Assembly: GCA_963789955.1 (NCBI GenBank)
Contig: CAWBMV010000016.1
Location: forward strand, 50,049-114,048
DNA: 64,000 nt
Direction of reading: 5' to 3'
From: an uncultured Candidatus Rokubacteria bacterium
GTDB lineage: Bacteria; Methylomirabilota; Methylomirabilia; Rokubacteriales; CSP1-6
Positions 8,059 through 56,219 of this stretch are shown here, one piece after another. A program made the translations under genes and the position numbers. Under the pieces are notes generated by a model, which was given only the letters and a program-made list of their open reading frames with translations, was not told the DNA's origin and made no database searches. Position 1 is the first letter of the stretch. The number at the start of each line of letters is the position of its first letter.

Positions 8059-8120
8059 GCTCTCCCCCGATTTTCTGTGAACGGCGGGAACTGTCATATA
8101 ATGCCGCCGGTTGCACTGCC

Positions 8121-8675
8121 ATGAAGTCCGCGTCTTCTGACTCGGCGCTCGAGCATCAAGGCCACGACGAGAGGTTCGCGCCGCTCTGGTACGTGCTGCG
8201 GACGCGCTCGCGTCACGAAAAGACGGTGCGCGATCAGCTCGTGCGCCGAGAGGTCGAGACTTTTCTGCCCATCGCCGAGCGCTGGAGCCGCTGGAAGGAT
8301 CGGCGCAAGAAAGTCGCCTTCCCACTTTTTCCCGGCTACTGCTTCGCGCGTTTCTCGCTCGTCGACCGCCTCCGGGTCCTGAACGTCGTCGGGGTCGCCG
8401 ATCTCGTCGGGATCAGCGGCCGGCCCGAGCCCGTCCCGGACGCCGAGATCGAAGCGATTCAACGTCTGGCGAGCACGACCTTGCAGTACGATCCGCACCC
8501 GTTCCTGGCCGAAGGCATGGACGTCGAGGTCGTGCGCGGCCCCCTCGCCGGCGTCCGCGGCAAGCTCCTGCGCAAGGACCGTGTGACGCGGCTGGTGCTC
8601 TCCGTCACGCTCATCCGCCAGGCCGCGGTCGTCGAAATCCATCCGGCTGACGTCGTTCACGTAAGCGGCCCCTAG
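8121..8675 (+). CDS. UpxY/RfaH/LoaP-like NusG-family transcription antiterminator
   Basis: NGN domain WYVLRTRSRHEK..PLFPGYCF; KOW domain GMDVEVVRGPLAGVRG. Confidence 0.9.
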   Translation: MKSASSDSALEHQGHDERFAPLWYVLRTRSRHEKTVRDQLVRREVETFLPIAERWSRWKDRRKKVAFPLFPGYCFARFSLVDRLRVLNVVGVADLVGISGRPEPVPDAEIEAIQRLASTTLQYDPHPFLAEGMDVEVVRGPLAGVRGKLLRKDRVTRLVLSVTLIRQAAVVEIHPADVVHVSGP

Positions 8676-9453
8676 TTCCGGAGCAACGCTCGCGCCTGGC
8701 GGGCCGCGGCACTCTGGGGATGCTCGCGGACCACTCGCTCCCACGATCGCTTCGCTCGCGCGCCGTCACCCAGGTCCTTCTGACATAGACCGATCTTCAG
8801 CAGCGCGTCGGGCACTTTCTCGCCGCGCGGCACCGCGGCGACGAGCGCCTCGAACTCGGCCAGCGCGCCGCGCCAGTCCTTCTGCTTGTAGTAGATGTCG
8901 GCCACCAGGAACTGCGCGCTCTCGCGCAGCGGGCTGTCCGGATACGTCGCGATGAGGTCGTAGAACGTGAGGATCGCCGCGTCGTCGGCCTTGGCGCGCA
9001 GCTGATCGACCCCTCGCCGGTAGAGGTCGGCCGCCGGCGTCGTGGTCGCCGAGCCGAGCAGCGGCGGCGCTGCGGGCGGCGCCGGGGCGGTGCGGCGCGC
9101 TCGGCGCGAACCCGCTCGGCGCGGCCGGCAGGCGACCGCGATTCGGCGACTCCGAGCTCTTCCACGCGACGACGCAAGTACGTCAGCTGATCATCCTGCT
9201 GTCGCGAGGCCGCGATGAGCTTGGCGACGGCGTTCTGGAGCTCGGCGAGCTCGCTGGCGATGCGCGCGACCTGCTCGTTGGAGCGATTCGGGTCGGCGGC
9301 GGCTCCCGACGGCTGGTTCGCGCCGGCGGCGGGTCGCGGCGAGTCGGCCGTCGCCGGCTGCTTGCCCACCTCGGCGCAGCCGGCAAGCATGAGCGCGACC
9401 ATCGCGGCACCGAGAAGCGTGCCGAAGCGGAGCGCCGGGGTCGCGGTAGTCAC
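8672..9453 (-). CDS. CpoB/YbgF-like TPR lipoprotein (frameshifted)
   Basis: Lipobox LAGC, coiled coil, C-terminal TPR with KVPDALLKIGLC..HPQSAAARQA. Confidence 0.75.
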
Positions 9454-9983
9454 GGGCTGTTCGCCGTCGTCACGGACACGAACGCGAGCGGCCATTGAGC
9501 GTGCGCCCGCACCTGGAGCGTCACGGTCGTCTCGCGGCTCAGCGGCACGTCGACGAGCCAGAGCCAGCCCTCCGGCACGTTCAACGACGGATAGCTCCGC
9601 ACGATCTCGCCGCGCGCGAACACATACTGGGCCTGCCCGGCGGCGCGCGTGTGCACGCGCTCCCCGAGGACCAGGGTCCCTCCGTTCGTGACGCAGAAGA
9701 GATAGTCGATCTCCTCTGCCGGAGAAGTCCGGATCACCCGAACGGGCGCCGTGCGTCGCGTGGACTTTCCGGCGATGCTCGTGGAGATCTGCTCGAGCGT
9801 CGAATACGCGACGGGCGCCTCGCGCATGGCGAAGAGCTCGTTGCCCTGGCTCTGGACGCGGATCATCGATTGATCCAGGGCCGCCACCGGCCGCGACTGA
9901 GGCTCTACGCGCGCGGCGACGATCAGGAGCGAGGCGACGGCGGCGAGCGTCACCACGGCCTGGAGCGCGGACCCGCGCGTCAT
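9450..9983 (-). CDS. Hypothetical exported protein
   Basis: N-terminal hydrophobic signal; overlaps both neighbours by 4 nt. Confidence 0.6.
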   Translation of the reverse strand: MTRGSALQAVVTLAAVASLLIVAARVEPQSRPVAALDQSMIRVQSQGNELFAMREAPVAYSTLEQISTSIAGKSTRRTAPVRVIRTSPAEEIDYLFCVTNGGTLVLGERVHTRAAGQAQYVFARGEIVRSYPSLNVPEGWLWLVDVPLSRETTVTLQVRAHAQWPLAFVSVTTANSP

Positions 9984-10888
9984 CCCGGCGCCGCCCGGCC
10001 CTGGAGCGCGATCCAGTCGCTCCGGCCGCCGATCCAGCCGCGCACCACTCTGGCGATGGGCAGCTCGTCACCCGCGGTGATCGCGCGCGCCGCGAGCTCG
10101 TCGAGTCGCGTGAGCCGCGCGCGCACCGCCGCGAGCTCCGCCAGGAATGCCGCGAACGTCGCGAGCAGCGCGCCGCCTTCCACCTCGGCGTGGAGCGTGA
10201 ACACGTTGATGCCCGGCCGCACCGCCTGCGCGAGCGCCTGCGGGACGTTCGCGACGCGGCCCATGACCTCGTCCATCGTCGGCATCGTCGTCGGCAGCTG
10301 GATGGTCTCGAGCGCGCCGTCGCCGACGCTCGGCCGGAACGGCGTGTCGCCACGCGTGTCGCTCGCGTAGCGGAAGCCGCGGCCGTCCTGGACCGTGAGC
10401 GCCAGCGGCGAAGTCCGCCACCCGGGCGCCGCGCTCGCGGATGGCGCGACGCCGACCGCGGCCAGGAACGACCGCGCGGCCAGATCCAGATCGGCGCGGA
10501 TCGCCACGTGGTCCAGTCGATGGATGCGATCCTGCCAGCCGACGTGGTCCCAGCCGTGCGGCGCGACCTCGTGCCCTTCATCGGCGATCTGACGGAGCAT
10601 CGCCGGCGCGCCGGCGCCGACCAGCCTCGCGGGCACGAGCGTGCCGGACAGCAACGTGCGGAGCCCGTAGAGCTTGAACGGGTTCGTGCGCCACATCTTG
10701 GCGAGAAAGCTCGGGCGCAGCGCGCGGCGGATCGCCCGCCCGGAGTGGTCCGGCCCCATGGTCACGAAGAAGGACGCGCGGACTCCGAGGCGCCGGAAGA
10801 GCTCGAGCAAGCGCGGGACCCCTTCGTCCAGACCACGGCGCGTGTCGACGTCCACGCGCAGGCCGACCGTCGCGCGATCGGTCAGCAT
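9980..10888 (-). CDS. arnD: ArnD-like deformylase (polysaccharide deacetylase fold)
   Basis: GLRVDVDT, MGPDHSGRA, HGWDHVGWQD, SAAPGW and TLHAEVEG match ArnD. Confidence 0.85.
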   Translation of the reverse strand: MLTDRATVGLRVDVDTRRGLDEGVPRLLELFRRLGVRASFFVTMGPDHSGRAIRRALRPSFLAKMWRTNPFKLYGLRTLLSGTLVPARLVGAGAPAMLRQIADEGHEVAPHGWDHVGWQDRIHRLDHVAIRADLDLAARSFLAAVGVAPSASAAPGWRTSPLALTVQDGRGFRYASDTRGDTPFRPSVGDGALETIQLPTTMPTMDEVMGRVANVPQALAQAVRPGINVFTLHAEVEGGALLATFAAFLAELAAVRARLTRLDELAARAITAGDELPIARVVRGWIGGRSDWIALQGRAAPG

Positions 10889-11819
10889 CAGAGACGCGTC
10901 CCCGGGCGCACAGCCCGGCGCGCCGCCCAGCGGTCGGCAGGCTCGGCGACGCCGCCGGCGCTTTGCACGCGCGTGATCAGGAGCATGCCCCGGCCCGTCG
11001 CCACGGCGATGCCGCGCGCCGGAACGATCTCGACCACGGTCCCCGGCGCGGCGTCGCTCGCCGAATCCTCGTGGATCGACGCGGCCCACAGGTGGACACG
11101 CGCCGGGCCGTCGCCGACGAACGCGCCGGGATAGGGCTCGGCGACCGCGCGAATCATGTTGAAGATCCGGGCGGCCGGCCAGGTCCATTCGATCCGGCCG
11201 TCCTCGGGACGTCGCCGCGGCATGGTCGTCGCCAGCCTCGGATCCTGTGGGATCCGCGGCGCCCGGTCGGCGAGCACCGCCGGGTAGGACTCGAGCAGCA
11301 GCTCCACGCCGATCTTCGTCATGCGCTCGTACACGGTGAAGGCGGTGTCGTCCGGCTCGATGTCGATCGGCCGCTGGGCCACGATGTCGCCCGCGTCGGC
11401 GGTCGCGGTCATGTGATGGAGGGTGATGCCGGTGCGCGACTCGCCGTGCACGATCGCCCAGTTGAGCGGCGCACGGCCGCGGTACGCCGGCAGCAGCGAG
11501 CCGTGCAAATTCAACGCCGCGATTCGCGGCAGCGCCAGAAGCGCGGGCCCCAGGAGCCGGCGATACCACACGGAGAGCATGAGTCGGGCGCGAGCTCGCG
11601 AACGTCTCGACGGTCGCGGGGCGATTCGGCGAAGGCGGCGTGAGACAGGGAATCCGATAGATGCGCGCGACGTCGGCGACCGACTCGAACCAGCTCCGTT
11701 CACCGGGATCGTCGGCGTGGGTCACCACGGCCGCGACGTGCTCGCCTCGTGACGAGCGCCTCGAGCACGCGCGCGCCGATCGTGTGATAGGCGAAGACGG
11801 CCCACCGCGCGCGCGTCAC
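10888..11819 (-). CDS. Stand-alone ArnA-type formyltransferase (frameshifted; no decarboxylase domain)
   Basis: AVFAYHTIG, VTHADDPGE..WF, NLHGSLLPAYRGRAPLNWAI, ADAGDIV and RRPEDG motifs. Confidence 0.85.
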
Positions 11820-12586
11820 TCGAGCACCTCGGCGATCACGTAGCGCGGCCCGCGCCGCGCTTCCTGATAGATCCGGCTCACGCGCGCGCCGATCGGCCGG
11901 AGTGCGAGCACCTGGACCGAGAGGTCGAAGGCCAGGCCGAGGAGCCGCAGCGGCCCGTACCGGGAGCGTCCGTGCTCGCGGGCGCGGTGGTCGACGGGAA
12001 TCTCGGTCATCGAGGACGCGAAGGCCGCGGCGAGCACCGGAAGGTAGCGCCGGGTGCCCCGGAACGCGAGGATCCGGTCGATCACCGATCGCCGGTACGC
12101 GCGCAGCATGCATCCGTAGTCGCGAAGCCGTACGCCGATCGCGGCCGACGTCACGTGATTGACGAGCCAGGACGCGGCCCGCCGGCCCCAGGGATCGCGC
12201 CGGCTCACGCGCCGCCCGCCGACGACGTCCGCGCCGGTTTCGAGCGCCGCGAGCAGCCGCGGAATCTCCTCGGGCGGATTCTGCAGATCGGCGTCGAGCG
12301 TCACGACGATCTCGCCGCGGGCGCGCTCCATGCCGGCGAACAGCGCGGCGTGCTGCCCGTAGTTGCGATTGAACCGGATCATCCGCACGGCCGCGTCGCG
12401 GGCGCGGAGCGCGCGAAGGACGTCCGCCGAGTCGTCGCGGCTCCCGTCGTCCACGAAGATGATCTCGTGCGGGCGGCCGATCTTCTCGAGCGTGCGCGCG
12501 AGCCGCTGATGGAGCGCGACGAGACTCGGCGCCTCGTTGAACACGGGGATCACGATCGACAGCGCCGGCCGCGCGCCGTCGCTCAT
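11816..12586 (-). CDS. arnC: ArnC-like GT2 polyprenyl-phosphate glycosyltransferase
   Basis: SIVIPVFNE, DDGSRD, RNYGQHAA, DADLQNPPEEIPRL and DYGCMLRAYRR motifs. Confidence 0.85.
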   Translation of the reverse strand: MSDGARPALSIVIPVFNEAPSLVALHQRLARTLEKIGRPHEIIFVDDGSRDDSADVLRALRARDAAVRMIRFNRNYGQHAALFAGMERARGEIVVTLDADLQNPPEEIPRLLAALETGADVVGGRRVSRRDPWGRRAASWLVNHVTSAAIGVRLRDYGCMLRAYRRSVIDRILAFRGTRRYLPVLAAAFASSMTEIPVDHRAREHGRSRYGPLRLLGLAFDLSVQVLALRPIGARVSRIYQEARRGPRYVIAEVLE

Positions 12587-13899
12587 CGCCCGGCCTCCCG
12601 GACCAGCAGGCAGTCGTTGTGGCCGCCGAAGCCGAACGAGTTCGAGATGGCGGCGCGGATGCGGGCGGGCACGGCGGTGTTGGGCACGTAGTTGAGGTCG
12701 CATTCGGGATCCGGCACGCGGTAGTTGATCGTCGGCGGGGCGATCTGGTCGCGCACCGCCAGCACCGTGGTCGCGAGCTCGATCGCGCCCGCGGCCGAGA
12801 TCGTGTGGCCGATCATGGATTTGGTCGAGCTCACCAGGAGCCGCGGGGCCTCGGCGCCGAACACGGTCTTGATCGCGGCGGTCTCCACACGGTCGTTCAT
12901 CGGCGTCGAGGTTCCGTGCGCGTTGACGTAGTCGACGTCGGGCGGGCTCAGCTCGGCGTCGGCCAGTGCCAGGCGCATCGCGCCGATGGCACCCCGCCCG
13001 TCCGGCGCCTCGTCGGTGACGCGATAGGCATCGCAGGTGGTCCCGTAGCCCGCGATCTCCGCGAGCGCCGGAGCCCCGCGACGACGCGCATGGTCGGCCG
13101 CCTCGAGGACGAGAAAGCCGGCGCCTTCGCCGATCACGAAGCCGTCGCGCCGAGCGTCGAAGGGCCGGCTCGCGGTCTCCGGCGTTCCGTTCTGGCGCGA
13201 CATGACCCCGAGCAGGCAGAAGAGCTGCACCTCGATGGGCGCGACGATGCACTCGGCGCCGCCGGCCAGCGCCACGTCGATCGTGCCGCGGCGGATCGCG
13301 CGGTACGCCTCGCCGATCGCCTGTGCCGACGACGTGCACGCGGTCTGGATCGTCGCCGTCGGTCCCTCGACCGCGAAGTGCCCGGCGAGCCGCGCGGCCA
13401 GGTACTGCGGCCACGTCCGGTAGGCCGCCCGGGCGGCGGCCCGGCGCGCGAACTCGCCGACGAATCCGGCGCGGGTCACGCCGCCGCCGGCATCGCGGCT
13501 CGCGTACGCGATGGCGCCGAGATCGCGCAGATCCTGGCGCTCGCCGCTGGTACCGACGAAGACGCCGGCGCGCCGCGACGCGAGCACCGCACGGGCGCCG
13601 GCCGCCGCGACGGCGCCGCGGGCGGCGCGCACACCCACCACGACGCCGCGGGGCTCCCGCGCATCGAGCGCTGCCTCGGCCCGGAGCTCGTCGATCAGCG
13701 CCCGATCGTCGAGCGAGGCGGCGATCTGGGTCGGAAGCCCTTCGGGATCGAAGTGGGAGATGCGCTTGACGCCCGACACGCCGGCGAGCGCGGCCTTCCA
13801 GAAGGTGTCCGCCTCGGCGCCGATCGGCGTCACCAGGTCGAGCCCGGTCACGACGACCCGCCGGCGCGCGCCCGCGTCAGGCGAGGAGCGAGTACCCAC
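12583..13899 (-). CDS. fabF: Beta-ketoacyl-ACP synthase (FabF-type, intact C-H-H triad)
   Basis: TACTSS, NAHGTST, KSMIGH and SNSFGFGG motifs. Confidence 0.92.
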   Translation of the reverse strand: MGTRSSPDAGARRRVVVTGLDLVTPIGAEADTFWKAALAGVSGVKRISHFDPEGLPTQIAASLDDRALIDELRAEAALDAREPRGVVVGVRAARGAVAAAGARAVLASRRAGVFVGTSGERQDLRDLGAIAYASRDAGGGVTRAGFVGEFARRAAARAAYRTWPQYLAARLAGHFAVEGPTATIQTACTSSAQAIGEAYRAIRRGTIDVALAGGAECIVAPIEVQLFCLLGVMSRQNGTPETASRPFDARRDGFVIGEGAGFLVLEAADHARRRGAPALAEIAGYGTTCDAYRVTDEAPDGRGAIGAMRLALADAELSPPDVDYVNAHGTSTPMNDRVETAAIKTVFGAEAPRLLVSSTKSMIGHTISAAGAIELATTVLAVRDQIAPPTINYRVPDPECDLNYVPNTAVPARIRAAISNSFGFGGHNDCLLVREAGR

Positions 13900-14629
13900 C
13901 GTCCACCGTCAGGACCTGCCCCTGGATCGCCTGCGCCGCCGGGCTCGCGAGAAAGTAGACGACGCCGGCGACTTCGTCCGCCGTCACGAGTGCCCGGCCC
14001 GGCGTGCGCTCGCGGATCGCCGCGAGCGCCGCCGTGCCGTCGGGCATCGCCTGCCACACGTCCGTCTCCACGGCCCCGGCCGACACCGTGTTCACGGTGA
14101 TGCCCTTCGCGCCGAGCTCGACGGCGAGGTAGCGCGTGAGTCCCTCGAGCGCGGCCTTCGACACGCCGATCGACGCATAGCCCGGAATGACACGCTGGCT
14201 GCCGAGGCTCGACAGCGCGATGATCCGGCCGCCCGGCGTCATGATCCGCGAGGCTTCCTGGGCCAGGATCAGCAGCGCGCGCGCGTTGGTCGCCATGACC
14301 CAATCCCACTGCTTGGGCGAGAGATCGAGCCCGTCCCGCAGCACGCCGGATGCGGCGTTGCTCACCACGACGTCGAGACGACCCGCGCGGTTCTTGATCT
14401 CGGCCACCAGCCGCTTGATCTCCGCCGGCTCCTTGAGGTCGGCCTGCAGCAGGTGCGGCACGCCGCCGCGCAGCTCCACGTCGTGCGCCGTCTTTTCCGC
14501 GGCCTCGCGATTCACGAAGAAGTTCACGAAGACCAGGGCGCCGGCCTCGGCGAAGCGCAGCGCGATCGCGCGCCCGATGCCGCGGCCGCCGCCGGTCACC
14601 AGCACGCTGCGCGGTGTCGCGTCACTCAT
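13877..14629 (-). CDS. fabL: FabL-like enoyl-ACP reductase (SDR)
   Basis: NAASGVLR, WDWVMATNARA and SSLGS..Y..IGVSKAALEGLTRYLAVEL closely follow FabL. Confidence 0.75.
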   Translation of the reverse strand: MSDATPRSVLVTGGGRGIGRAIALRFAEAGALVFVNFFVNREAAEKTAHDVELRGGVPHLLQADLKEPAEIKRLVAEIKNRAGRLDVVVSNAASGVLRDGLDLSPKQWDWVMATNARALLILAQEASRIMTPGGRIIALSSLGSQRVIPGYASIGVSKAALEGLTRYLAVELGAKGITVNTVSAGAVETDVWQAMPDGTAALAAIRERTPGRALVTADEVAGVVYFLASPAAQAIQGQVLTVDGGYSLLA

Positions 14630-14632
14630 GCG

Positions 14633-15112
14633 TCACGCGCCGCCGTCTCGCGGCGCGAGACCGGCGGGCACCGGCGTGAGCTCGCGCGCGAGCGCGCCGA
14701 GCCGCGCGGCATGGCGTTCCGCGTCGGTCCCGGGGGCCGCCGGCTCGAGCTCGTACTCGAGGGTCGCCGCCGCGACCCGGCGCGACTCGACCATCGCCGT
14801 CGCGTCGAGCACCCAGCCGTCGTCGCTTCGCCGCTCGCACCGGATCGCGAGCTGATCGCCGGGACGCACGGGATGCCGGAATGCGACGCGTGAGAGCCGG
14901 CGCAGCCGCCCGACCTCGGCGAACTCCCGGCTCAGCGCGATCAGGAGCTGGCACGCCTGCGCGAACGCCTCGACGACGAGCGCGCCCGGCAAGACCGGGT
15001 AGCCGGGAAAGTGGTCGGCGAACACGTCGTCGAGCCCGCTCACGTGCTTCGAGGTCTCGATCCGGCGAGGGACGTCGAGCTTCACGATGCGGTCCACGAA
15101 CACGAAGCGCAT
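14633..15112 (-). CDS. fabZ: FabZ/FabA-like 3-hydroxyacyl-ACP dehydratase
   Basis: MRFVFVDRI..DHFPGYPVLPGALVVEAFAQ..F..PVRPGD motifs. Confidence 0.88.
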   Translation of the reverse strand: MRFVFVDRIVKLDVPRRIETSKHVSGLDDVFADHFPGYPVLPGALVVEAFAQACQLLIALSREFAEVGRLRRLSRVAFRHPVRPGDQLAIRCERRSDDGWVLDATAMVESRRVAAATLEYELEPAAPGTDAERHAARLGALARELTPVPAGLAPRDGGA

Positions 15113-15144
15113 CCTGGTGGACGGCGCGCGGCGCCGTCGTCTCC

Positions 15145-15753
15145 TCAGGCTCCGGCGGCGAGCCGCCCGGCGGCCGCGAGCTGGCCCACGAGGTACTCGG
15201 TGACGGCGTGAACGGTCAGCCGGCTCATGACGGCCTCGACCGCGTCCGGCGAGTGCAGGTTCTTCTCGAGATAGCCGGCGAGCTGGTCGACCTCGAGGCC
15301 CGACAGGTCGAGCGGGGTCAGCGCGAGATCGTCGAGCATGCGGGTGACGAGCACCGTGACGACCTCGCGCGCGTCGCCGGAGACTCGGGCGATACCGTGC
15401 TTGGCGGCCATGTGCTCGAGCACCGCGCCGACCGTCGCCGGCGACACCATGCGCAGCTCCTCGGCCGCCACCGCGACGCGATACCGCGCCTCGAGCACGC
15501 GGGCCAGCACGCTCAGGTCGCGCCACTCGATCCGGCGCTCCTGGATCAGTCGCATCGGCAGGTCGACGCCGAAGGTCTGCTGACACTTGAAGCTCAGGTC
15601 GAGAAAGTCGATCGACTCGGCGCCGAGATCCGCGATCAGCGCGGCCTCCGCCGTCACGTTCCCCTCGTCGACGCCGAGTGATTCGACGATGAGCTTGCCC
15701 ACGCTCACGCGAACTTCGGGTCGAGTCCAGATCTTCCTGGTATCGGGCTCCAT
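15145..15753 (-). CDS. Oversized acyl carrier protein (202 aa)
   Basis: DLGAESIDFLDL phosphopantetheine motif near the N-terminus; terminal helix LTVHAVTEYL after a long insertion. Confidence 0.8.
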   Translation of the reverse strand: MEPDTRKIWTRPEVRVSVGKLIVESLGVDEGNVTAEAALIADLGAESIDFLDLSFKCQQTFGVDLPMRLIQERRIEWRDLSVLARVLEARYRVAVAAEELRMVSPATVGAVLEHMAAKHGIARVSGDAREVVTVLVTRMLDDLALTPLDLSGLEVDQLAGYLEKNLHSPDAVEAVMSRLTVHAVTEYLVGQLAAAGRLAAGA

Positions 15754-15769
15754 GCGCTCCCCGGCCTCC

Positions 15770-16516
15770 TCAGCCGATTCCGCCGTCGACGGCGATGACC
15801 TGGCCCGTGATGTAGCTCGCCTCCTCCGAGGCGAGGAACACGGCCAGCGCGGCCACCTCTTCGGGGCGACCCACGCGCCGCATCGGGATCCACTCCCGAA
15901 TCTTCGGCGCGGCCATGCCGATGAACGGACGGCTCATGTCGGTCTCGATCAATCCCGGCGCGATCGCGTTCACCGTGACGCCCCGGGCGCCGAGCTCCCG
16001 CGCCAGGGCCACGGTGAAGGCGTTGACGCCGCCCTTCGACGCCGCGTAGCCGACCTGGCCGCGGCCGGCCCGCGACGCCAGCACCGAGCTCACGTTGATG
16101 ATGCGGCCCCAGCCCTGGCGGAGCATGTGCCCGGCGCCCAGACGCGCACAGCGAAAGACGGCGTCCAGGTTGGTCTCGAGCACCGACGCCCACTCGTCGT
16201 CCGGCGTCTCGACGAACAATCCCTCGCGGCTGATCCCCGCGTTGTTCACCAGGACGTCGAGCCGGCCCGCGCGCTCGACGACCGCACCGATCAGCGCCTC
16301 GGTCTGGGCCCGGTCGCTCACGTCGGCCTGGTACACGAAGCCGTGTCCGCCGGCCGCCTCGATCGCCCCCAAGGTTTCCTTGGCGCGCTCGTGCTGCTGG
16401 CGATAGTTGATGCACACCGTCGCGCCCGCCCGCGCCAGCGCGATGGCGATGGCGCGTCCGATACCGCGCGAGGCGCCGGTGACGAGCGCGGCGCGGCCGG
16501 TCAACGCGATCTGCAT
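15770..16516 (-). CDS. fabG: 3-oxoacyl-ACP reductase
   Basis: TGASRGIG, NNAG, YAASK and ITGQVIAVDGG motifs. Confidence 0.88.
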   Translation of the reverse strand: MQIALTGRAALVTGASRGIGRAIAIALARAGATVCINYRQQHERAKETLGAIEAAGGHGFVYQADVSDRAQTEALIGAVVERAGRLDVLVNNAGISREGLFVETPDDEWASVLETNLDAVFRCARLGAGHMLRQGWGRIINVSSVLASRAGRGQVGYAASKGGVNAFTVALARELGARGVTVNAIAPGLIETDMSRPFIGMAAPKIREWIPMRRVGRPEEVAALAVFLASEEASYITGQVIAVDGGIG

Positions 16517-16523
16517 GCCGGCG

Positions 16524-17781: not shown

Positions 17782-18063
17782 GCGCGGGCACCTCGCGCCG
17801 GGTCGCCGGCCGGCGGCTCGACGCACACGAACATGAGCGTCGCCCGCGCGATCGGCGTGCGCTCGACGTACACCTCGCTCTCCGTCTCGGCGACGCTCGT
17901 CCCGTCGGCCACCGACGTGAGCCCGCGGAGCGTGGCACGAGCGCAGCCGGTCGCCCGCGGCAGCGACGCCCGCGAGACGGCAGTCGGGCACCTTGAGGAG
18001 CAGCGGCAAGCGGCTCCGGCCGAGGTGACGGAAGACGATCTCGTCGACGAATTGGTAGCGCAT
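17778..18063 (-). pseudogene. Second FabZ-like hotdog protein, shortened and frameshifted
   Basis: MRYQFVDEIV start like the neighbouring FabZ, joined directly to FRHLGRSRLPLLLKV; the HFPG..PG..E core is missing. Confidence 0.55.
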
Positions 18064-18101
18064 GCAGAGACGGGTCGAGCGACCGGAGACGAGTGGTGGC
18101 G

Positions 18102-20711: not shown

Positions 20712-20715
20712 GTTC

Positions 20716-23386: not shown

Positions 23387-23390
23387 GGGC

Positions 23391-27534: not shown

Positions 27535-27535
27535 G

Positions 27536-31586: not shown

Positions 31587-31593
31587 GCCGCCC

Positions 31594-35260: not shown

Positions 35261-35270
35261 ATCGCGGGTG

Positions 35271-36303
35271 TTACGCGCCCTGACCGAACGCCATGCGGAC
35301 ACCGTCCTTGAACGACAGGGGCTCGCGACCCAGGAGCGCGCGAAGGGCGGACGGGTCGCCTAAACAGTGTCGCATGTCCCCCGCCCGATACCCGCCGACA
35401 ACCTCAGGCGGGCAATCGACCCCGAGCGCCTCGGCGATCCGCTCGCAGGCCTCGCCGAGCCGGGTGGGGACACCTGAGCAGACGTTGGTGACCGGCTGGC
35501 GCCGGTCGCGCCGCCCAAGCACGGCCAGGATGGCGGCCACGACGTCGCCGACGAAGACCCAATCGCGGATCTGCCGCCCGTCCTCGAAGAGCTTCGGCCG
35601 CTCACCCGCCCGCGCCCAGCCCGGCGATCCGCGCGATGATGGTGGCCTCCCCATCGTCCAGCCGCAGGCGGGACCCGTACACGGACGAGAAGCGCAGAAT
35701 CGAGACCGGGCACGCGGTAGAGCCCCTGAAGCAGAGCTCCTGCATGTACTTCGAGGCGCCGTACGTCTCGAGAGGATCCGGCGCGCGCCGTCTCCGTGAT
35801 CGGCTGGATCTCCATGTCGGCGCCGCACTCGCGGCAGCGCACCTCGAAGCGCCCAGCGTCGAGGTCGGCCGGGCTTCGCGTCCCGTCGCCCTCGCGCGCG
35901 CACCGCGCGCACCGATACGTGTAGTTGGCCCCGTAGACGCTGAAGCTGGACGCCAGCACGACGCGGCGCAACCGGGTCCAGCGCCGCGCGGCCTCGACGA
36001 GCCGTCCCGTGCCGGCGCAATTCGCCTCCAGGATGTTGGCGGGCTCGCGCGCCGCGCGTGCGACGCCGCCGAGCGCCGCCAGATGCACGACGGCCTCGAC
36101 GTCGTCGAAGCCGTGCGTCCGGCTCGAAGTCGGCGCAGGTCGACGATGCGATAGTCGACATCCGCGCGAAGGTAGGTCGGCCGCTCGCGATGGACGCCGG
36201 GATCGAGGCTGTCGACGCAGACGACGGCGGCGCCCGCCTCGCGGAGGGCATCCACGACGTGCGAGCCGATGAAACCGGCGCCGCCCGTCACCAGGACTTT
36301 CAT
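35271..36303 (-). CDS. NAD-dependent sugar epimerase with CxxC..CxxC insert (frameshifted)
   Basis: TGGAGFIG, CARC..CREC, YGASK, DGRQIRDWV and YRAGDMRH motifs. Confidence 0.85.
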
Positions 36304-37269
36304 GCGCGTGCGCTCAAGGTCGCGGCGATCCGCTCACGATGCTCGCGAAACCAGTCGACCGTTCGCTCGATGCCCTCGCGAACGCTCACCGCTGGCGCGA
36401 ATCCCAGTGTGGCCCGCGCCTTGCCGATGTCCGCCTCGCGGTGGGTCGAGCGGTCCCAGGGCCGCCGCGGCGCGAACTGGATCGGGCTCGCGGAGCGGCA
36501 CGCCTTGACGATCATCTCCGCCAGATCGATGACGCGGGTCTGAACACCGGTCCCGAGGTTGAACGCGTCGCCGCGGGCCGCGGGCATCTCGGCGCTCGCG
36601 AGCAGACCGTCCGACGAGATCGTCGACGAAGATGAAATCGCGCGTCTCTTCTCCGGTCCCGGTGATGACCAGCGGCTCGCCGTGCAGCGCGCGCCAGATG
36701 AAGTTCGGGATCACGTTTCGGTAGGCGCCGGGCACTTCGCCCGGACCATACGAGTTGAAGAAGCGGCAGCGCACCGTGGTGCACGCGGGCATCGAAGTAA
36801 TTGCAGTAGAGCTCGCCCAGCGCCTTCGTGATCTGGTAGGGCGTGTCGAGCGCGAGGCTCACCGGCATGTCCTCGCGAATCGGCCCGTCGACGCCGTGAC
36901 CGGCGATCGAGCAGCCGGCCGACGCGTAGACGAAGCGTTCCGCCCGGCGCGCCTCGGCCCACATGAGCGCCGTGAGCGTGCCGAGACCGTTCGTGTGCAG
37001 ATCGTCGCGCGGATGATCCACGCTGTTCTGATTCGCGAAGAAGGCGGCGAGGTGGAAGACCAGCGGGCCATCCGCCCGAGGCCCAGATCGAAGATCCGGC
37101 ACACGTCGCCTCGCGTGAGTCGGACTCGCGGATCTGAGGGGAGCAGCCACTCATACCCCGACGACAGGTCGTCGACGACCTCCACGTGCGCGACGTCACG
37201 CTCCAGCAATCGCCGGACGAGCCAGGATCCGATCGCGCCCGCGCCTCCGGTGACGACGACGGTCTTCAT
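36300..37269 (-). CDS. NAD-dependent sugar epimerase/dehydratase (WbmF-like; frameshifted)
   Basis: TGGAGAIG, HLAAFFANQNS, SAGCS, TPYQITK, RFFNSYGPGE and TRDFIFV motifs. Confidence 0.82.
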
Positions 37270-38375
37270 GCTCGTTCGACTGCGGGCGCGCGGCCGGCGC
37301 GCCACGCCGCTTCGTGGATCGCGCGCGCGTACCGCGGCCACACACGCTCGATGTCGCAGCGCTCGACCACCGTCTGGCGTCCGCGCCCACCGATCTCGCG
37401 CGCCCGATCGGGTCGTGAGAAGAGCTCGACGACGCGCTTCGTCATGCCGGCGACATCGCCCACCTCGACGAGGAATCCGTTATCTTCGTGACGAATCAAG
37501 TCCGGAAGGCCTCCCACTCCGGTCGCGACGACAGGCAGCCCGACGGCCATCGCCTCGATTACCGCGTTCGGAAGCCCCTCGGAATGGCTGGGAAAGAGAA
37601 ACACGTCGCTCTCGCCGAGCACGCGTTGAACCTCGTGACGGCCGAGCCAGCCCGTGGTGCGCGCCGCGCCCGACAATCCCGCGCTGGCGACGCTCTCGCG
37701 GAATGCGTCCAGATCGCGGCCGCCACCGACGATGGTGAGCGTCGCCGAGGGGTGAACCGTTCGAACGCCAGCAAGAACCTCGAGGGCCTCGAAGACCCCT
37801 TTCTCGCGCGTCACCCAGCCGACGAAGACGATGCGGCCCCCGGGAGCATGCGGGACGGCAGGGTCGCCGAGCCTCACACCATTCGAGACCTCGATGACCT
37901 TGTCGCCGCCCGCGAAACGACCGAAGTAGGTCGTCCAGTACCCGCTCTGCGTGCACACGCAGTGAGCGCTCCTGAGCACCAGCCGCAGCCAGGTGCGCAG
38001 CACCGGCCACCGGGCACACTGCTCGGGAACATTGCCGCCGCTGATTCGCAGCACCACCCCGCGACGAGCCAGGCGCGCGAGAATGCACATCCATCCCTTC
38101 TCGAGCAGGCTGACCGCGTCCGCCGCGAAGACGAGTACGACGTCGGCCGCCCAGAGGCGCCTGACGAACCGAGAGAGCCTGGCGACGGCCCTCGCGGCGC
38201 GTCGAGGCAGTGCCGGTGGCGGCACGGACGGCAGGGCCGTGGACAGCAATTCCAGCTCGACCGCGGAGGCCAGGCTGCTCTCGAAGAGCGCGTTGGCCGC
38301 GACAGCCTGGCCTCCGGTCGCGCCGCCCGCGCCCGCCGCGACCGAGGCGACGAAGAGGACGCGCAGCCGGCTCAC
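37266..38375 (-). CDS. GT4 glycosyltransferase
   Basis: FVGW..EKG and FPSHSEGLPNAVIEAMA..PVVAT motifs. Confidence 0.88.
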   Translation of the reverse strand: MSRLRVLFVASVAAGAGGATGGQAVAANALFESSLASAVELELLSTALPSVPPPALPRRAARAVARLSRFVRRLWAADVVLVFAADAVSLLEKGWMCILARLARRGVVLRISGGNVPEQCARWPVLRTWLRLVLRSAHCVCTQSGYWTTYFGRFAGGDKVIEVSNGVRLGDPAVPHAPGGRIVFVGWVTREKGVFEALEVLAGVRTVHPSATLTIVGGGRDLDAFRESVASAGLSGAARTTGWLGRHEVQRVLGESDVFLFPSHSEGLPNAVIEAMAVGLPVVATGVGGLPDLIRHEDNGFLVEVGDVAGMTKRVVELFSRPDRAREIGGRGRQTVVERCDIERVWPRYARAIHEAAWRAGRAPAVERA

Positions 38376-40287
38376 GTCGTGGACGGCGGTTCCACTCGAC
38401 CGAGAATGCACCGCCGCCAGCGAAAGAACGTGTACAGCAGGAACGACCGATGAAGCGCTCGATAGCTGTCGTGGCGCCGGCACCGTTCCATGTCGGCGCG
38501 GACCTGTCGTTCCAGGGCGACGCGGTTGAGCTCCGCGTCCGGGTCGCGCGCGTAAGCATCCACCTCCCGGCGGAGCGCGGTCCAGAAGCGCTCGCCCAGC
38601 CATCGCGAAACCGGGAGCGTGAAGCCGCGCTTGGGCGCCGCCGAGGACGGGCTGAGGCAGACGGCCGGCCAGCGCCTCTCGAAGTACGCGCTTGCCGAGG
38701 CCTCCACGGACCTTGAGATGCCCAGGCAACGCGAGCGCGTACGCCGCCAGGCGGGAATCGAGGAACGGGGCGCGGACCTCGAGCGATTCGGCCATCGACA
38801 TCCGATCGACCTTCGTGAGGATGTCTTGCGGCAGTGAGACGCGGAGCTCGTGAAGTGACATGGCGAGCAAGGGATCCTTCACGCCCTGCCACAGCCGGCG
38901 CGACTCCTCCCGCATCACATCGATCTGCTCTCGCGCCTCGCACTCCCAGGGCGTCGCGCGAAAGAGCTCGAGCAGGGCGTCATCGCTAAAGAGCCCTTCC
39001 ATCGAGTGCGGCAGCAAACCCGCTGGGACGGCGCCGTTGAGCTGAAAGGCCCTTTGAACTCCTTCCCACCGCCCGTGGTCTGGGAGCATGCGGGACAGGA
39101 CTCCGGAGGTACACGCGCCCAACCAGCCTCCTCCCAGACGCCGGAGGCGGTCCGTCCGCAGGTGCGACAGGTAGCCGCCAAAGAGCTCGTCGCCGCCGTC
39201 ACCCGACAGCACCACGCGGAAGTGACGCCGAGCCGCCCGCGACACCGACCTGGTCGGGATCGCGCTCGTGTCGTGGAACGGCTGCCCGAAATGCTGCAAG
39301 AGCTCGTCGACGACCACTTCCGAAAAGGAGGCCGTCTGAGCGCTCTCCTCGTGAAGCTCGATCCCGAGGCGGGCGGCCGTCTGCCGAGCGAGCGGGCGTT
39401 CGTCGTGCGCGGCGTCATCGAATCCGACTGTGACGGCGGCGATGCTCGATGTCGCTCGAACGGCGGAGGCGGCGATCGCGCTCGAGTCGATCCCGCCGCT
39501 CAGGAAGAGCCCGACGGGCACGTCGGCGACCAGCCGCTCGCGGACACTCGCGTCCAGCAAGGCCAGGATCTGCGAGCCGCACCGCTCGAGCCGAGCCACA
39601 TTCCTCGTCGACGCGGTCGGGCAAGCACCAATAGTGCCCGGACTCCTCGGCTCCGGCGGACGATCGCCGCAGCCAGGTCCCGGGACGCAGCTCCGAGATG
39701 CCCTCGACGGCGCTGATCCCCGGCCAGGGGTAGCCGGCCCGAAGAATCGCGGCGAGCCCGCGAGCGGACGGCCGCCGGGCCGAGCGGGCCGTGAGCACGA
39801 GCGGCGCGAGCTCGCTGCAGAAGGCGAAGCCATCGCGCCGATCGACGTACAGCGGCTTCTCGCCGAATCGGTCACGAGCCAGCCACAGATCACCGGCGGG
39901 GATGTCGACCGCGGCGAAGCTGAACATGCCCTCGGCCGACGCGAGCGCGCCGGGGACCCCGCGCTCGGCGATCAGCTCGAGCAGCACTTCCGTGTCGGAG
40001 GCGGTCCGGAACCGGACGCCTCGTGACGCCATCTCGGCGCGGAGCCGGACGAAGTTGTAGATCTCGCCATTCAGGACCAGACACCAGCGCCCATCGGCGC
40101 TCGTCATCGGCTGGAGTCCCCGCCGAGGGTCGATGATGGCGAGCCGAACCATGCCCAGGCGCCACGTCACGCCACGCCATTCGCCCGAGTCGTCGGGGCC
40201 GCGATGCTGGAGCATCCCGAGCATCTTGGAGACGTCCGGGCCTCCTGCGTCCAGTGCTCGTCGATCGGTCCCGGCGATACCGCACAC
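38372..40287 (-). CDS. Second AsnB-like amidotransferase (frameshifted)
   Basis: MCGIAG, HRGPD, LNGEIYN, RDRFGEKPLY, LSGGIDSS, SGDGGDELFGGY and KVDRMSMAESLEVRAPFLD motifs. Confidence 0.9.
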
Positions 40288-40291
40288 GGGC

Positions 40292-41734
40292 TCAGCGCTC
40301 CCCGCCGGTCATCGACTCGACGGTCGGCGACGGCAATCGCCGGCGACGACCGAGCCACGCCGCGACGAAGACCGCGGGGACCAGCGAGCCGACGATGCCC
40401 GCTTTCAGGAGCGAGGCGAAATCGCCCCGGATCATCATGATCGACAGCGACACGACGACGGCGTAGACGAGGATGCGGCTCTTGCTGAACGGCGCGAGAC
40501 GTCGATAGGTCACGGCGGCCCGGACCACGATCCCCTCGACGAAGGCCACGGCGGCCGCCCCCAGGATTCCGAAGTTCAGGTACCCCTCCGCCAGCAACGC
40601 GTAGCTGTATCCGCCTCCGGCGGCCGCGATCCCCGGATCGATCAGATTTACGAACCACTGGCTCGGCGCGATCGGTCGCTCCGGGTGCAGCGGCAGCGGA
40701 ATCAGGATCTCGAAGGCGTCGACGAAGCTCCGGCCCAGCCAGAACGGCTCCTGCGCGGGAACTTGATAGATCGTCTCGGTCAGCGCGAGCAGGACCGTGA
40801 CCGGCTCGGCCATCAGATTGACGAGTTCGTCGAGACCGAATTGCTCCACCAGACGCGTCAGGATGCCGCCGAAACCTTCGGCGAGATAGGCGCGAGCGAG
40901 CCCCACCGCGGCGAACACCGGCAGCGCCAGGGCCGCGCCGATAACCAGCGTTCGTAGCCGGATCCGACGCGTGGAGAAGTGATGCGCAACCAGGAGCGCC
41001 AATATCGTCTCGAGCACCACGCGACGACGGCCGATGCGCAGCATGAGCAGGGCGAAGACCGAGAACAGGATCCACGGAAGGATCGGCGTGCGGCGGCCCC
41101 ATTCCGCCGTCGTCAGATACAGCACGACGAGTCCGGTTTGCGCCAGCATCACGCCCGCGGCCAGAACGCCGAGTCCCGCGATGGCCTCGTATCCTCGCGC
41201 GTATGCCGACTCGACCAGTGTCTCGACACCGACGGTCCCGACCAGGGTGCCGACCAGCGCGGTCCCGAGGATCAGGAGCCCCGACGAGATCGCGAGACCC
41301 TCGCCTCGCGTCCAGTCGCCTTCGGCCCGCGGCATGAGTCCGGCGAGCGCGGGTCCGGCGGGGCTCGAATAGCCGAACAAGAAGGCGAAGAGGGCGATGA
41401 GCGCGACACCGATGATGCCGGACTCGAGGTGGAGGACCAGGCCGATGAAGCGTGGCACCTCTCCGACCGCCAGCCAGAAGAACGCCACCACCGGAACCAC
41501 CACGTAGATACCGAAGAAGACGAGGAACACCGTGTCCATCTCGACGAGGTCGCGGGGATGGGTGGCGCAGCGATACCAGAGCGCCGCGAAATACGCGATG
41601 ACCAGCACGGTCAACCAGATGTCGACCGGGCTCAGCACATCGGGCATCGCGAGCGCCACGATACCCGCCGAGAGCACGAGCACGTTCAGGACAGCGAGCG
41701 AGCTCAGCCACGGCGACGACAGCACGGCTCTCAC
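40292..41734 (-). CDS. wzy: O-antigen/polysaccharide polymerase
   Basis: About 11-12 TM helices, GRRR, periplasmic loop and EGYLNFGILG motif; operon context. Confidence 0.75.
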   Translation of the reverse strand: MRAVLSSPWLSSLAVLNVLVLSAGIVALAMPDVLSPVDIWLTVLVIAYFAALWYRCATHPRDLVEMDTVFLVFFGIYVVVPVVAFFWLAVGEVPRFIGLVLHLESGIIGVALIALFAFLFGYSSPAGPALAGLMPRAEGDWTRGEGLAISSGLLILGTALVGTLVGTVGVETLVESAYARGYEAIAGLGVLAAGVMLAQTGLVVLYLTTAEWGRRTPILPWILFSVFALLMLRIGRRRVVLETILALLVAHHFSTRRIRLRTLVIGAALALPVFAAVGLARAYLAEGFGGILTRLVEQFGLDELVNLMAEPVTVLLALTETIYQVPAQEPFWLGRSFVDAFEILIPLPLHPERPIAPSQWFVNLIDPGIAAAGGGYSYALLAEGYLNFGILGAAAVAFVEGIVVRAAVTYRRLAPFSKSRILVYAVVVSLSIMMIRGDFASLLKAGIVGSLVPAVFVAAWLGRRRRLPSPTVESMTGGER

Positions 41735-43212
41735 GAGGTCGCCCACAGGCGGCGGCGCAAGGGGCGCGTCCATTCCATCCCGGTCGCCGTCATGCTCCCG
41801 ATGAACGCGAGCGCCGCGAGCGGCACGTACACGATCATTTCGACGGCGCTGTACTGGGCCGGAAGCAGACTCCGCAGCGCAACGGCTCCGGCGCCGAGCA
41901 GCGCGCCCGACGCCAGCGCAGTCCAGGGGCGCAGGGCCGAAAAGCTCACGCGATAAGCATGAGCGACGTACCGCAAAGTCAGGACGGCCAGCGTGACGCG
42001 CGACAGCAGGTAGGCGAGGCCAAGGGCTGCCATCCCGGCCAGACGCAGCCAGCCCAGCAGTGCCGAGGCGACGCCGAAGACGAGGATGGCGGCACAGAGG
42101 TTGCGGGTATTCACCGCCCGCTCTGTCTCGCCGTCGATCAGACCTCTCAGACAGGCGAAGAGGAACGAGGGGGTCAACGAGAGGCACACCATCGCCGCGA
42201 CCCCGGCCGCCGCGTCGTACTCGGGGCCGAGCCAGACCCGGATCAGCACGTCAGCCCAGATGACCATCTGGAAGGTCGCGAACGTGCCGCCGTGCAGCGC
42301 CCACTGGGCAACCTGGCGAGCCCGGGCTGCATGCGTATGGAAGTCTCCCCGTGCGATCGCGGCGGCCGACGCCGGGATCAGCACCTGGCTCAAGGCGCCG
42401 CTGATCGGATTGAGTGGCCTCATGAGCGCCAGGCCGATCGCCAGATAGCCCGCGCCGATCAGGCCCGCGCCTGACACGACGGCGATCCACGGCAAAGTCA
42501 GATCGAGAGCCGGCTCGAGGGCGCTGGCCGGCACTCTGCGCAGGCCGTATCGCAGCAGGACGGCGGCTTCGCGGAACGGACTCGGCCCGACTTGACTCCA
42601 GATCCAGCGGGCGATTCGCAGCAGCGACGGCAGCGTCGTGACGCCAGTGGCCACCGCGGTCCACGTGATGACGGTCGAGAGGCTCGTATCACGGAGCAGC
42701 AGAACACACACCAGTGGCGACAGCCCGAGCGCGGCGACCGCCGTCCCCACCGACTCCAGCACATGCTCGCGCGCGAGCTGAATCAGGCTCACCATCGTAG
42801 TGAAGGCCTGAGCGTACGTGAGCCATATGAATGCCCGCCACAGATGTTCGGCTCCGGGATGATCGAGAAGCCGGGCGATCGGCTCCGCGAAGACCACGCT
42901 CACGGCGCACCCAGCGGCGAGGCTCGCTCCCGCGAGGACGAGACCAGTCAGCGCGGCACCGGCGGCACGATCCGGCTTCGAGCCGAGGTACGCGACGGTC
43001 CGCTGCAGCGCGATCGGCAGTCCGAGCGCCGCGCACGCGAGCAGCAGTGATCCGTACAGCCTGAACAGGAGCACGGCCGAGAGGTCGAGGCCTCCATACC
43101 TTTGGGTATAGGCACGCGTGACCAGCAAGGTGAACCCGGCGATGAGCAGGCTGCCGGCACTGACGAGACAGGTCCGGCTGAGCAGTCGCTTCGAGGAGAA
43201 GGTCAATTTCAA
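41731..43212 (-). CDS. wzx: Polysaccharide flippase (MOP family)
   Basis: About 12-14 TM helices, LGLPIALQRTVA and LIRVWLGPEY; first gene of the operon. Confidence 0.75.
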   Translation of the reverse strand: MKLTFSSKRLLSRTCLVSAGSLLIAGFTLLVTRAYTQRYGGLDLSAVLLFRLYGSLLLACAALGLPIALQRTVAYLGSKPDRAAGAALTGLVLAGASLAAGCAVSVVFAEPIARLLDHPGAEHLWRAFIWLTYAQAFTTMVSLIQLAREHVLESVGTAVAALGLSPLVCVLLLRDTSLSTVITWTAVATGVTTLPSLLRIARWIWSQVGPSPFREAAVLLRYGLRRVPASALEPALDLTLPWIAVVSGAGLIGAGYLAIGLALMRPLNPISGALSQVLIPASAAAIARGDFHTHAARARQVAQWALHGGTFATFQMVIWADVLIRVWLGPEYDAAAGVAAMVCLSLTPSFLFACLRGLIDGETERAVNTRNLCAAILVFGVASALLGWLRLAGMAALGLAYLLSRVTLAVLTLRYVAHAYRVSFSALRPWTALASGALLGAGAVALRSLLPAQYSAVEMIVYVPLAALAFIGSMTATGMEWTRPLRRRLWATS

Positions 43213-55697: not shown

Positions 55698-55717
55698 CGC
55701 CGGCCCGATCTGGCGAA

Positions 55718-55755
55718 GAGGCGCAGGGTCCTCCGTGAAGAAGGCCCTGCGCCTC
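55718..55755 (+). terminator. Stem-loop downstream of the first adhesin gene
   Basis: GAGGCGCAGGG / CCCTGCGCCTC stem; no U-tract. Confidence 0.4.
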
Positions 55756-56202: not shown

Positions 56203-56219
56203 CCGCGTGCAACGCACAT

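Follow-up and report, generated by a model that had tools for sequence, protein, structure and literature searches.

A class-wide fatty-acid/polyketide cassette with an unusual acyl carrier protein in Methylomirabilia, a candidate envelope-lipid pathway

Gene sets resembling the type II fatty-acid/polyketide (fab) cassette described here, which lies in a 64,000-nucleotide stretch of DNA (the window) from an uncultured Candidatus Rokubacteria bacterium, are known from several pathways. In the accessible text of its description, anammox Cluster I (kuste3603-3608) comprises an acyl carrier protein (ACP), FabZ, two FabF proteins, a phytoene dehydrogenase homolog and a cobalamin radical SAM enzyme (bioRxiv 10.64898/2026.05.19.726425), with no ligase among them. 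A phenylacetyl-CoA ligase is part of wider clusters that also occur in D. psychrophila, an organism that produced no ladderanes according to the available portion of that study (PMC2649909). In cispentacin synthesis the starter is loaded by an adenylating enzyme (available text of PMC10698177), and soil “ladderane” clusters of unknown product have already been noted in Verrucomicrobia (available text of PMC7298704). A first-pass annotation of the window had taken the combination of ACP, FabZ, paired ketosynthases (KSs) and ligase as the ladderane composition; as far as these sources extend, the same combination also occurs in aryl polyene, rhizobial very-long-chain and cispentacin clusters.

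The window belongs to contig C16 of genome G000 (87% complete, 68% GC), and its genes were identified with Pfam and NCBIfam family models. Gene content, active-site residues, a separate KS clade, purifying selection and linkage could be observed directly, and the cassette is real, class-wide and under selection, with an unusual carrier protein. In a reading that we regard as having an even chance of being right, the fab genes form a dedicated, vertically inherited cassette of the class Methylomirabilia that makes a special, probably saturated acyl chain for an envelope lipid with an amino sugar or aminocyclitol, following an aryl-polyene-like logic. A literature search, conducted mostly without subscription papers or supplements (whose tables could list the cluster), returned no description of the cassette, of such a 200-amino-acid (aa) ACP, or of DUF1571, a protein that accompanies it in relatives.

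The cassette and its 202-residue carrier protein

The cassette genes of the window are listed in order of transcription.

22185-23386, minus strand: DegT-family aminotransferase (PseC/ArnB-like; Pfam, NCBIfam), kept directly before paaK, frameshifted in the assembly
20716-22188, minus strand: PaaK-like adenylate-forming ligase (NF045666, 156 bits, below cut-off; PaaK 4r1l, E 1e-29)
17778-18063, minus strand: FabZ1, FabZ-like without the catalytic His (alignment), here with a 147-nt deletion and a frameshift
16524-17781, minus strand: Cys-less, chain-length-factor (CLF)-like KS (Pfam, alignment), one frameshift near 17186
15770-16516, minus strand: FabG-like ketoreductase (Pfam, NCBIfam)
15145-15753, minus strand: 202-aa ACP, Ser47 in GAESIDFLD (sequence, structure model)
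14633-15112, minus strand: FabZ2 dehydratase with His and Glu (Pfam, alignment)
13877-14629, minus strand: FabL-like enoyl-ACP reductase (best match NF005975, 286 bits, cut-off 328)
12583-13899, minus strand: active KS with Cys-His-His (NCBIfam, alignment, tree)

The two KS proteins comprise an active enzyme and a triad-less partner, from which a heterodimer is predicted. The aligned column of the CLF-like KS lacks Cys in 25 of 25 cassette rows; likewise, FabZ1 lacks His in all eight aligned rows, and the His of FabZ2 is present in five of five. The CLF-like profile scores 257 bits on canonical FabF versus 162 bits on 1tqy_B, the best solved chain-length factor listed, and this greater proximity to canonical FabF than to any solved CLF suggests an independent CLF origin. 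The active KS scores 322 bits on canonical FabF versus 292 bits on 9s5h_B, an entry that we guess to be the anammox KS pair. By Pfam and NCBIfam identification, the fab block lacks genes for FabD, FabH, a thioesterase and an acyltransferase.

When 34 active KSs are placed in one tree, the 13 cassette rows form one clade (SH-aLRT 100) and the 10 housekeeping FabF rows a separate one (SH-aLRT 99). The fab genes thus do not group with housekeeping fatty-acid synthesis; such a grouping would, according to the first-pass annotation, have refuted its proposal. The cassette KS is 42% identical to the FabF of G000 itself. The KS and CLF trees each split into three families, which fits vertical descent. 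Values of dN/dS are 0.09-0.29 for KS, CLF, ACP and FabL in every pair tested; between G000 and its relative G004 they are 0.11-0.19 for Wza, CLF, FabG, ACP, FabZ2, FabL, KS and ArnC, and 0.48 for FabZ1. A plasmid search with the CLF returned only matches below 60% identity, the best 15 at 30-33%. A recent horizontal island is unsupported: the trees follow the families, and GC is 0.73 in the fab-arn part versus 0.68 in the genome.

The structure model of the ACP (mean pLDDT 89.5) aligns with whole ACPs from residue ∼10 to ∼200, with only 75-90 residues paired. This spread indicates a core made of helices I-II and the last helix, with ∼110 residues as an insert; the prediction is thus of an ACP core interrupted, ahead of the last helix, by a ∼110-aa helical insert. 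Foldseek with the full model gave partial ACP matches only and none at E 0.001. Of the 251 phylum genomes searched, 42 match the ACP profile, spread over three families (f1, f7 and f11), and we fetched the locus from 34 of these 42 (G206 was left out of the 34), many stretches being cut by contig ends. In a single-sequence search, 1018 of 3720 candidate proteins matched. Similar 200-aa ACP clusters exist in the Atlas, their few classified members mostly Myxococcota, and for the distant full-length relatives a taxon is given for one cluster of 10 only. The ACP motif is also a mark of FabZ-ACP-FabZ-KS cassettes that are widespread in metagenomes (588 of 599 stretches), so the core of the cassette is of a known kind.

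Other oversized carriers and KS clusters were seen alongside. In G206 (L087:105-15373), a related ∼200-aa ACP belongs to a cluster of other composition, together with at least four KS genes, FabD, ABC/FtsX and a LolA-like protein. Contig C3 of G000 (L116:3830-16157; also G009, L228) holds a second cassette with a 191-aa ACP that is homologous only in its first 70 residues; it encodes an MsbA-like ABC protein, PAP2, epimerase, GNAT, FabL-like reductase, ACP, KS, FabZ, FabG, FabZ and a Cys-less KS. Its GNAT and PAP2 genes are found again in G185, next to genes for a PLP aminotransferase and DUF1571, a set that we take to be reminiscent of bacterial sphingolipid genes. A third KS cluster, on G000 contig C37 (218481-232400; L117, L219), combines an LpxL-family acyltransferase, radical SAM, ArnT-like GT-C, ABC permease, GT2, CLF-like protein and two KSs.

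The pairing of a KS with an inactive KS, as in anammox Cluster I, and the top structural match of the ACP model, the 89-aa anammox ACP 7auf (Z 10.7, rmsd 2.4, 87 aligned, 21% identity), would suit ladderane or ladderane-like cyclobutane lipids, but this match is tied with an ordinary ACP chain (8xqx_J, Z 10.1). The first-pass annotation had itself seen no radical SAM gene, and indeed none of the 32 PF04055 matches of G000 lies on C16, nor does a CxxxCxxC-type motif occur in coding-like open reading frames (ORFs) of the 34 loci, in a scan that recovered both of its positive controls. Neither Pfam nor NCBIfam finds a phytoene-dehydrogenase homolog among the operon proteins, three of the 34 loci have an FAD enzyme of the geranylgeranyl-reductase family near the cassette, and an enoyl-reductase-like gene is present. 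“Ladderane-type” therefore finds no support as a claim about the product. Since the similar cluster of D. psychrophila also comes with no ladderanes in the available text (PMC2649909), we consider such lipids largely refuted here and very improbable.

Linkage in relatives and the proposed lipid

Among the 34 stretches, the ACP is found in 34, FabL in 33, CLF, FabG and FabZ2 in 32 each, KS in 30, PaaK in 23, Wza in 21, ArnC in 19, AcpS in 15, DUF1571 in 14 and the ArnT-like gene in 12. The fullest order, in G248, runs ArnT-like, inositol-phosphate synthase (MIPS), DegT, DegT, paaK, DUF1571, wza, acpS, fabZ1, CLF, fabG, ACP, fabZ2, fabL, KS, arnC, formyltransferase, ArnA-C-like, arnD, a gene of unknown type and cpoB, with upxY convergent. 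The usual f7 unit consists of ArnT-like, paaK, DUF1571, acpS and the fab genes, with wza-wzi at its edge in G077, G068 and G070 and arnC after KS in G073 and G083. In f11, G107 has the order wzz, wza, reductase, wzi, ArnT-like, DegT, paaK and fab genes. In 16 genomes of f1, wza is found within the cassette itself, flanked by paaK/DUF1571 on one side and acpS/fabZ1 on the other. Gene order is therefore kept over three families, and the fab genes stay joined to wza and arnC in many relatives, as first proposed. All genes named in the first-pass annotation are real, although its set was incomplete: intact copies add the predicted periplasmic protein DUF1571, AcpS, an ArnT-like transferase, Wzi, MIPS and an aminotransferase.

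Across the 251 genomes, 31 of the 32 with a PaaK ortholog have the ACP, as do 20 of the 28 with DUF1571. For ArnD the corresponding figures are 30/43 overall, 22/25 in f1 and 8/16 in f7, and for window-type Wza 27/38, 20/22 and 5/9; these counts are descriptive only, because the genomes are related to one another and many are incomplete. DUF1571 begins with a signal-peptide-like sequence and has a MucB/RseB-domain match (E 2e-7), and no solved structure matched it at E <0.02; in G185 it adjoins the aminotransferase-GNAT-PAP2 lipid cluster. In several relatives a Phd/YefM antitoxin gene and a neighboring PIN-like ORF lie between paaK and DUF1571/wza (L026:18750-19043, L035:12179-12891, L034:4075-4434).

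Downstream of the cassette, and displaced from it in one case, the window holds an Arn-like module and the genes of the operon tail.

11816-12586, minus strand: ArnC-like GT2 (NCBIfam), C-terminal membrane part ∼55 aa shorter than in intact relatives
10888-11819, minus strand: ArnA-N-like formyltransferase (NCBIfam); the ArnA-C-like gene next to it in relatives is absent here
9980-10888, minus strand: ArnD-like deformylase (NF011923, 250 bits, cut-off 382)
9450-9983, minus strand: conserved secreted 177-aa protein (no Pfam/NCBIfam match)
8672-9453, minus strand: CpoB/YbgF-like TPR lipoprotein (NCBIfam), frameshifted in the assembly
7932-8675, plus strand: UpxY-family antiterminator (NF033644, above cut-off), convergent with the operon end
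∼51745-53553, plus strand: ArnT-like GT-C membrane glycosyltransferase, displaced and on the opposite strand (67% to the cassette copy of G027; 5ezm, E 2.5e-41)

The displaced ArnT-like gene falls together with the copies in the G027, G237 and G248 cassettes at 98/100, and the UpxY gene is kept at the operon end in 10 of the 34 loci. A DUF6805 look-alike to the 177-aa protein, at 0.90 and below the recognition line of the tool, is a lead only. Scores on the Arn models fall below the cut-offs throughout (ArnC 241/341 bits versus 529, formyltransferase 299 versus 316, ArnA-C-like 163 versus 294, ArnD 250 versus 382, ArnB 319 versus 631, ArnT 125 versus 567). As these cut-offs are tuned to proteobacteria, the description “works like Arn” still stands.

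We propose a mechanism whose steps are drawn from protein families and linkage. The cassette's own AcpS would activate the large ACP, and the PaaK-like ligase would load a non-standard starter acid, the cassette being without FabH or FabD; this ligase likely either loads the starter acid or forms a final amide. The KS/CLF-like heterodimer, FabG, the FabZ1/FabZ2 dehydratase pair and the FabL-like reductase would then elongate and reduce the chain, for which the ACP insert may give room if it is long or bulky. The chain would be joined to an amino head group, from MIPS and the DegT aminotransferase where present, and the Arn-like module would make an undecaprenyl-phosphate amino sugar that the ArnT-like transferase adds in the periplasm. 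DUF1571 would carry the lipid to the outer membrane. The cassette itself is embedded in a cell-surface super-locus that also includes Wza, Wzi and Wzz and is probably transcribed as a unit.

Several observations weigh against this proposal. The cassette has no recognizable acyltransferase, thioesterase or inner-membrane exporter, which leaves the release step a gap unless the ligase forms an amide. G077 and G070 have no ArnT-like gene next to the cassette, the transferases that accompany it in the three families do not separate from arn-linked ArnT as one supported clade, MIPS is found in only four of the 34 stretches, and no DUF1571 was detected in G000 or in most of the genus to which it belongs. 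Co-occurrence among kin also overstates linkage. Finally, only eight of the 16 f7 genomes with ArnD have the ACP, and G080 mixes arn genes with radical SAM and GT21 genes of hopanoid type; both facts suggest that the target of the Arn module may be lipid A or a different lipid. In G080 (L217:1-13049) the Arn-like genes are interleaved with a B12 radical SAM gene and a GT21 gene, presumably of the HpnJ/HpnI type, followed by arnD, with a separate ArnT.

Could the locus instead be a lipid A tailoring island? The cassette would then make an extra-long secondary acyl chain for lipid A, like the rhizobial acpXL-fabZXL-fabF2XL-fabF1XL-adhA2XL-lpxXL cluster, with Arn and ArnT adding an amino-pentose and the capsule genes merely co-regulated. 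This would accord with lpxC in 57 of 61 genomes, with the match of the ArnT-like gene to 5ezm, with the eight f7 Arn-bearing genomes that lack the cassette, and with alignment of the ACP model through its insert with the specialized ACP RPA2022, which we take to be an AcpXL. Two LpxL-family acyltransferases do exist elsewhere in G000, the PF03279 matches lying on C1 and C37 with none on C16. However, no LpxXL-type acyltransferase occurs among the window genes or the mapped cassette genes of relatives, whereas the XL cluster has one in the available description (PMC11901934). On the models NF005079 and NF005076 the ACP (36 versus 83 bits) and KS (334 versus 629 bits) are far under the cut-offs. 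We assume these two models to represent the XL proteins. Nor does that pathway have any use for the PaaK-like ligase or DUF1571, to which the cassette is most tightly tied. We therefore see lipid A tailoring as a tentative alternative, some way short of probable. Outright replacement of lipid A by the cassette lipid is rejected, given lpxC in 57 of 61 genomes.

A released small acyl-aminocyclitol or aryl-acyl metabolite or pigment, with the envelope genes incidental, is suggested by the resemblance of KS/CLF, ligase, MIPS and aminotransferase to highly reducing type II polyketide synthase clusters (PMC10698177, available text), but the cassette has no thioesterase, exporter or regulator, its inheritance is vertical across the whole class and inside an envelope locus, and the FabL-like reductase argues against a polyene; we rate such a metabolite as quite unlikely. 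The dedicated chain for an envelope lipid remains our preferred interpretation.

The capsule locus and the reduced copy

The genes upstream of the cassette, the wza between ligase and FabZ1, and the wzi beyond wzx give the locus its capsule component.

41731-43212, minus strand: Wzx-like flippase, weak family match (TIGR02900, E 3e-6 only)
40292-41734, minus strand: Wzy polymerase (PF14296, E 1.6e-7, above cut-off)
24557-40287, minus strand: variable sugar block (Pfam, NCBIfam) with two AsnB-type amidotransferases, two GT4, two epimerases, methyltransferase, GNAT, deacetylase, sugar (phospho)transferase, E1 alpha/beta pair, DegT and CapD
23391-24560, minus strand: Wzz chain-length protein (PF02706)
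18102-20711, minus strand: large multi-SLBB Wza (OPX), ∼860 aa (PF02563, PF10531), frameshifted in the assembly
47856-49505, minus strand: Wzi-family outer-membrane beta-barrel (PF14052, E 8e-64; 53% to the cassette-flanking gene of G027)

On the minus strand, 32 co-directional genes run from the wzx-like gene through the CpoB-like TPR gene (8672-43212). Judged by stop and start positions, 19 of the 31 junctions overlap, 15 by 4-nt ATGA/GTGA and four in other ways (the pdhA-pdhB junction was judged from translations only), and the largest measured intergenic gap is 38 nt, from wza to fabZ1. This agrees with the gene order, co-directionality and overlaps first described; wzi and the ArnT-like transferase are two further genes of the system, outside the limits drawn then. 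The operon is likely one transcript. RNA-library contigs from runs X15 and X17 gave depth in 30 of 30 bins of 8000-25000, such contigs being blind to strand, level and single transcripts, and promoter and terminator scans of 7000-26500 gave chance level only.

One- or two-base frameshifts split many window genes. Those at 9149, 11582, 11600, 11744 and 17186 are absent from contigs of a close relative in soil run X4, so they are probably sequencing or assembly errors. A misassembly at 18063-18102, a caveat raised in the first-pass annotation, is rejected, because this wza-fabZ1 junction aligns with the same junction in G004 and G015 and is spanned gap-free by a single, independent contig of soil run X9.

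Wzy, Wzz, Wza, an initiating sugar transferase and a flippase (the last by its weak match) place the genes among Wzx/Wzy loci, and the window wzi is orthologous to the wzi found at the cassette border in other lineages. At 40% identity, neither wzx nor wzy of the window has an ortholog among the other 33 stretches; just four of these (G015, G248, G077 and G107) reach at least 20 kb upstream. G248 has the window's capD, a DegT and the E1 pair at 43-68%, and G015 carries other sugar genes. On these comparisons the sugar block is an interchangeable neighbor of the cassette, and the tie of the cassette to the Wzx/Wzy glycan is looser than first held. The idea of a fusion with that pathway is weakened by the variable block and by near-complete genomes in which cassette, Wza and Arn modules occur separately. 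G081 (98% complete, six contigs) and G069 (100%) have a complete-looking cassette with no match to window-type Wza at E 1e-20, and G080 (98% complete, seven contigs) has Wza and Arn genes with no ACP match.

These genomes also bear on the earlier inference of a glycan anchor, taken here in the form that the polymer or its primer would be moved by the GT-C enzyme onto a special lipid and held at the surface via Wza and Wzi. Such a capsule anchor would explain why wza lies inside the cassette in 16 f1 genomes, why 20 of 22 f1 Wza genomes have the ACP, and why wza-wzi borders the cassette in three f7 genomes and one f11 genome; moreover, retention of Wzy-dependent capsules is described as incompletely understood in the available text of PMC12220298. 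Against it stand G081, G069 and G080, the five of nine f7 Wza genomes with the ACP, the free change of the sugar block, and the Wza-Wzi pairing that is common without fab genes (PMC9603273, available text). We judge the anchor unlikely, and thus of the two parts of the earlier inference, the dedicated acyl chain for an envelope lipid stands as the best interpretation and its role in anchoring or decorating a surface glycan is less favored. We are similarly doubtful of a more specific version, a new glycolipid in which a long acyl chain built on the 200-residue ACP would be amide-linked to an amino-inositol, the ArnT-like GT-C would attach the Wzy-made capsule, and Wza, Wzi and DUF1571 would export a capsule with its own non-lipid-A anchor.

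Several neighboring features were recorded. The E1 alpha/beta (transketolase-like) pair inside the sugar block (27536-29507, minus strand) is 67-68% identical to the pair of G248; E1 alpha/beta-type pairs can make branched-chain sugars. Divergent from wzx, 43320-44738 (plus strand) encodes a secreted pectate-lyase-like beta-helix protein, possibly a capsule-trimming enzyme, and in G006 a gene similar to it sits between wzz and paaK. An undecaprenyl diphosphate synthase-family gene lies near the locus at 60979-61752 (plus strand), a large surface protein, frameshifted and with a VPVPVQPPPLQPVKVEPAAGVAVRVT-like repeat in many copies, at 54251-60746 (minus strand; two pieces without a Pfam match), and a KaiC-family protein, above the PRK09302 cut-off, at 116-1603 (minus strand).

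The copy of the cassette in G000 is reduced. The 87% complete genome has no match for MIPS or DUF1571 and no ortholog of the second DegT, the cassette AcpS or the ArnA-C-like gene (best 36%), so that a complete Arn enzyme set was not found. ArnC is short by ∼55 residues also in G004, G006 and G010. The 147 nt missing from window FabZ1 are likewise missing in run X9, which has a further 121-nt deletion, and run X15 has the long form; the FabZ1 deletion is accordingly a real polymorphism. Close relatives have lost other parts of the locus. G006 is without FabZ1, FabZ2, most of FabG and part of CLF. L136 is without FabZ1 and most of FabZ2, L133 without FabZ2, and L132 without the arn genes. The simplest reading is decay in this subclade, and the window copy may no longer make the full product; alternatively, a reduced KS-ACP-FabL function may be retained. 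Repeated independent deletions in close relatives would suggest a surface structure being shed, as expected if it is costly or exposed to phage.

The locus is a pointer to an envelope lipid not yet described, in a soil lineage that is both abundant and uncultured, and it names the genes required to rebuild the lipid pathway in a laboratory host. The question of how ACPs handle long or bulky chains is one on which the 200-aa ACP bears, being a free-standing carrier whose insert is large and for which no full-length relative has been solved. More broadly, “ladderane-type” calls in soil genomes can flag envelope-lipid cassettes without ladderane chemistry.

Comparison with described clusters

All four families of a Wzx/Wzy capsule locus with Wza, Wzz and Wzi are present here. 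In contrast to such loci, Wza has moved into the fab cassette, and no Wzc kinase domain or Wzb was seen in the operon. The Arn (L-Ara4N) pathway is matched by ArnC-, formyltransferase-, ArnA-C-, ArnD-, ArnB- and ArnT-like genes in the copies of intact relatives, but all of these genes are under the curated cut-offs, the aminotransferase is nearer PseC, and no ArnE/F was seen.

With anammox Cluster I, as given in its accessible description, the cassette shares a special ACP, FabZ and an active KS with an inactive CLF-like partner. It differs in having no cobalamin radical SAM enzyme or phytoene dehydrogenase, in placing KS and CLF five genes apart, and in having FabG, a FabL-like reductase and two FabZ proteins. 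The rhizobial acpXL-lpxXL cluster likewise has a special ACP with an insert, FabZ, paired FabF proteins and an envelope-lipid target in the available text of PMC11901934, whereas here there is no LpxXL or AdhA2XL, the ACP is twice as long, and a ligase, FabG, FabL-like reductase, second FabZ and DUF1571 are added.

The aryl polyene (ape) clusters, as far as the available text of PMC8253772 describes them, differ from the cassette in having two small ACPs rather than one of 202 aa and three KSs rather than two, and in having no enoyl reductase, whereas the cassette has a FabL-like reductase and its own AcpS. The ApeD/ApeJ acyltransferases, ApeK thioesterase and ApeM RND transporter have no counterpart here, where GT-C and Arn-like genes are found instead. 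The likeness lies in an ACP-loading adenylating enzyme, a KS with a chain-length factor, two dehydratases and FabG, and in a Lol-like periplasmic carrier and an outer-membrane lipid product, for which DUF1571 and the cassette lipid would be the equivalents. Ligase, KS/CLF, two dehydratases, FabG and the putative Lol-like carrier are all present in intact relatives.

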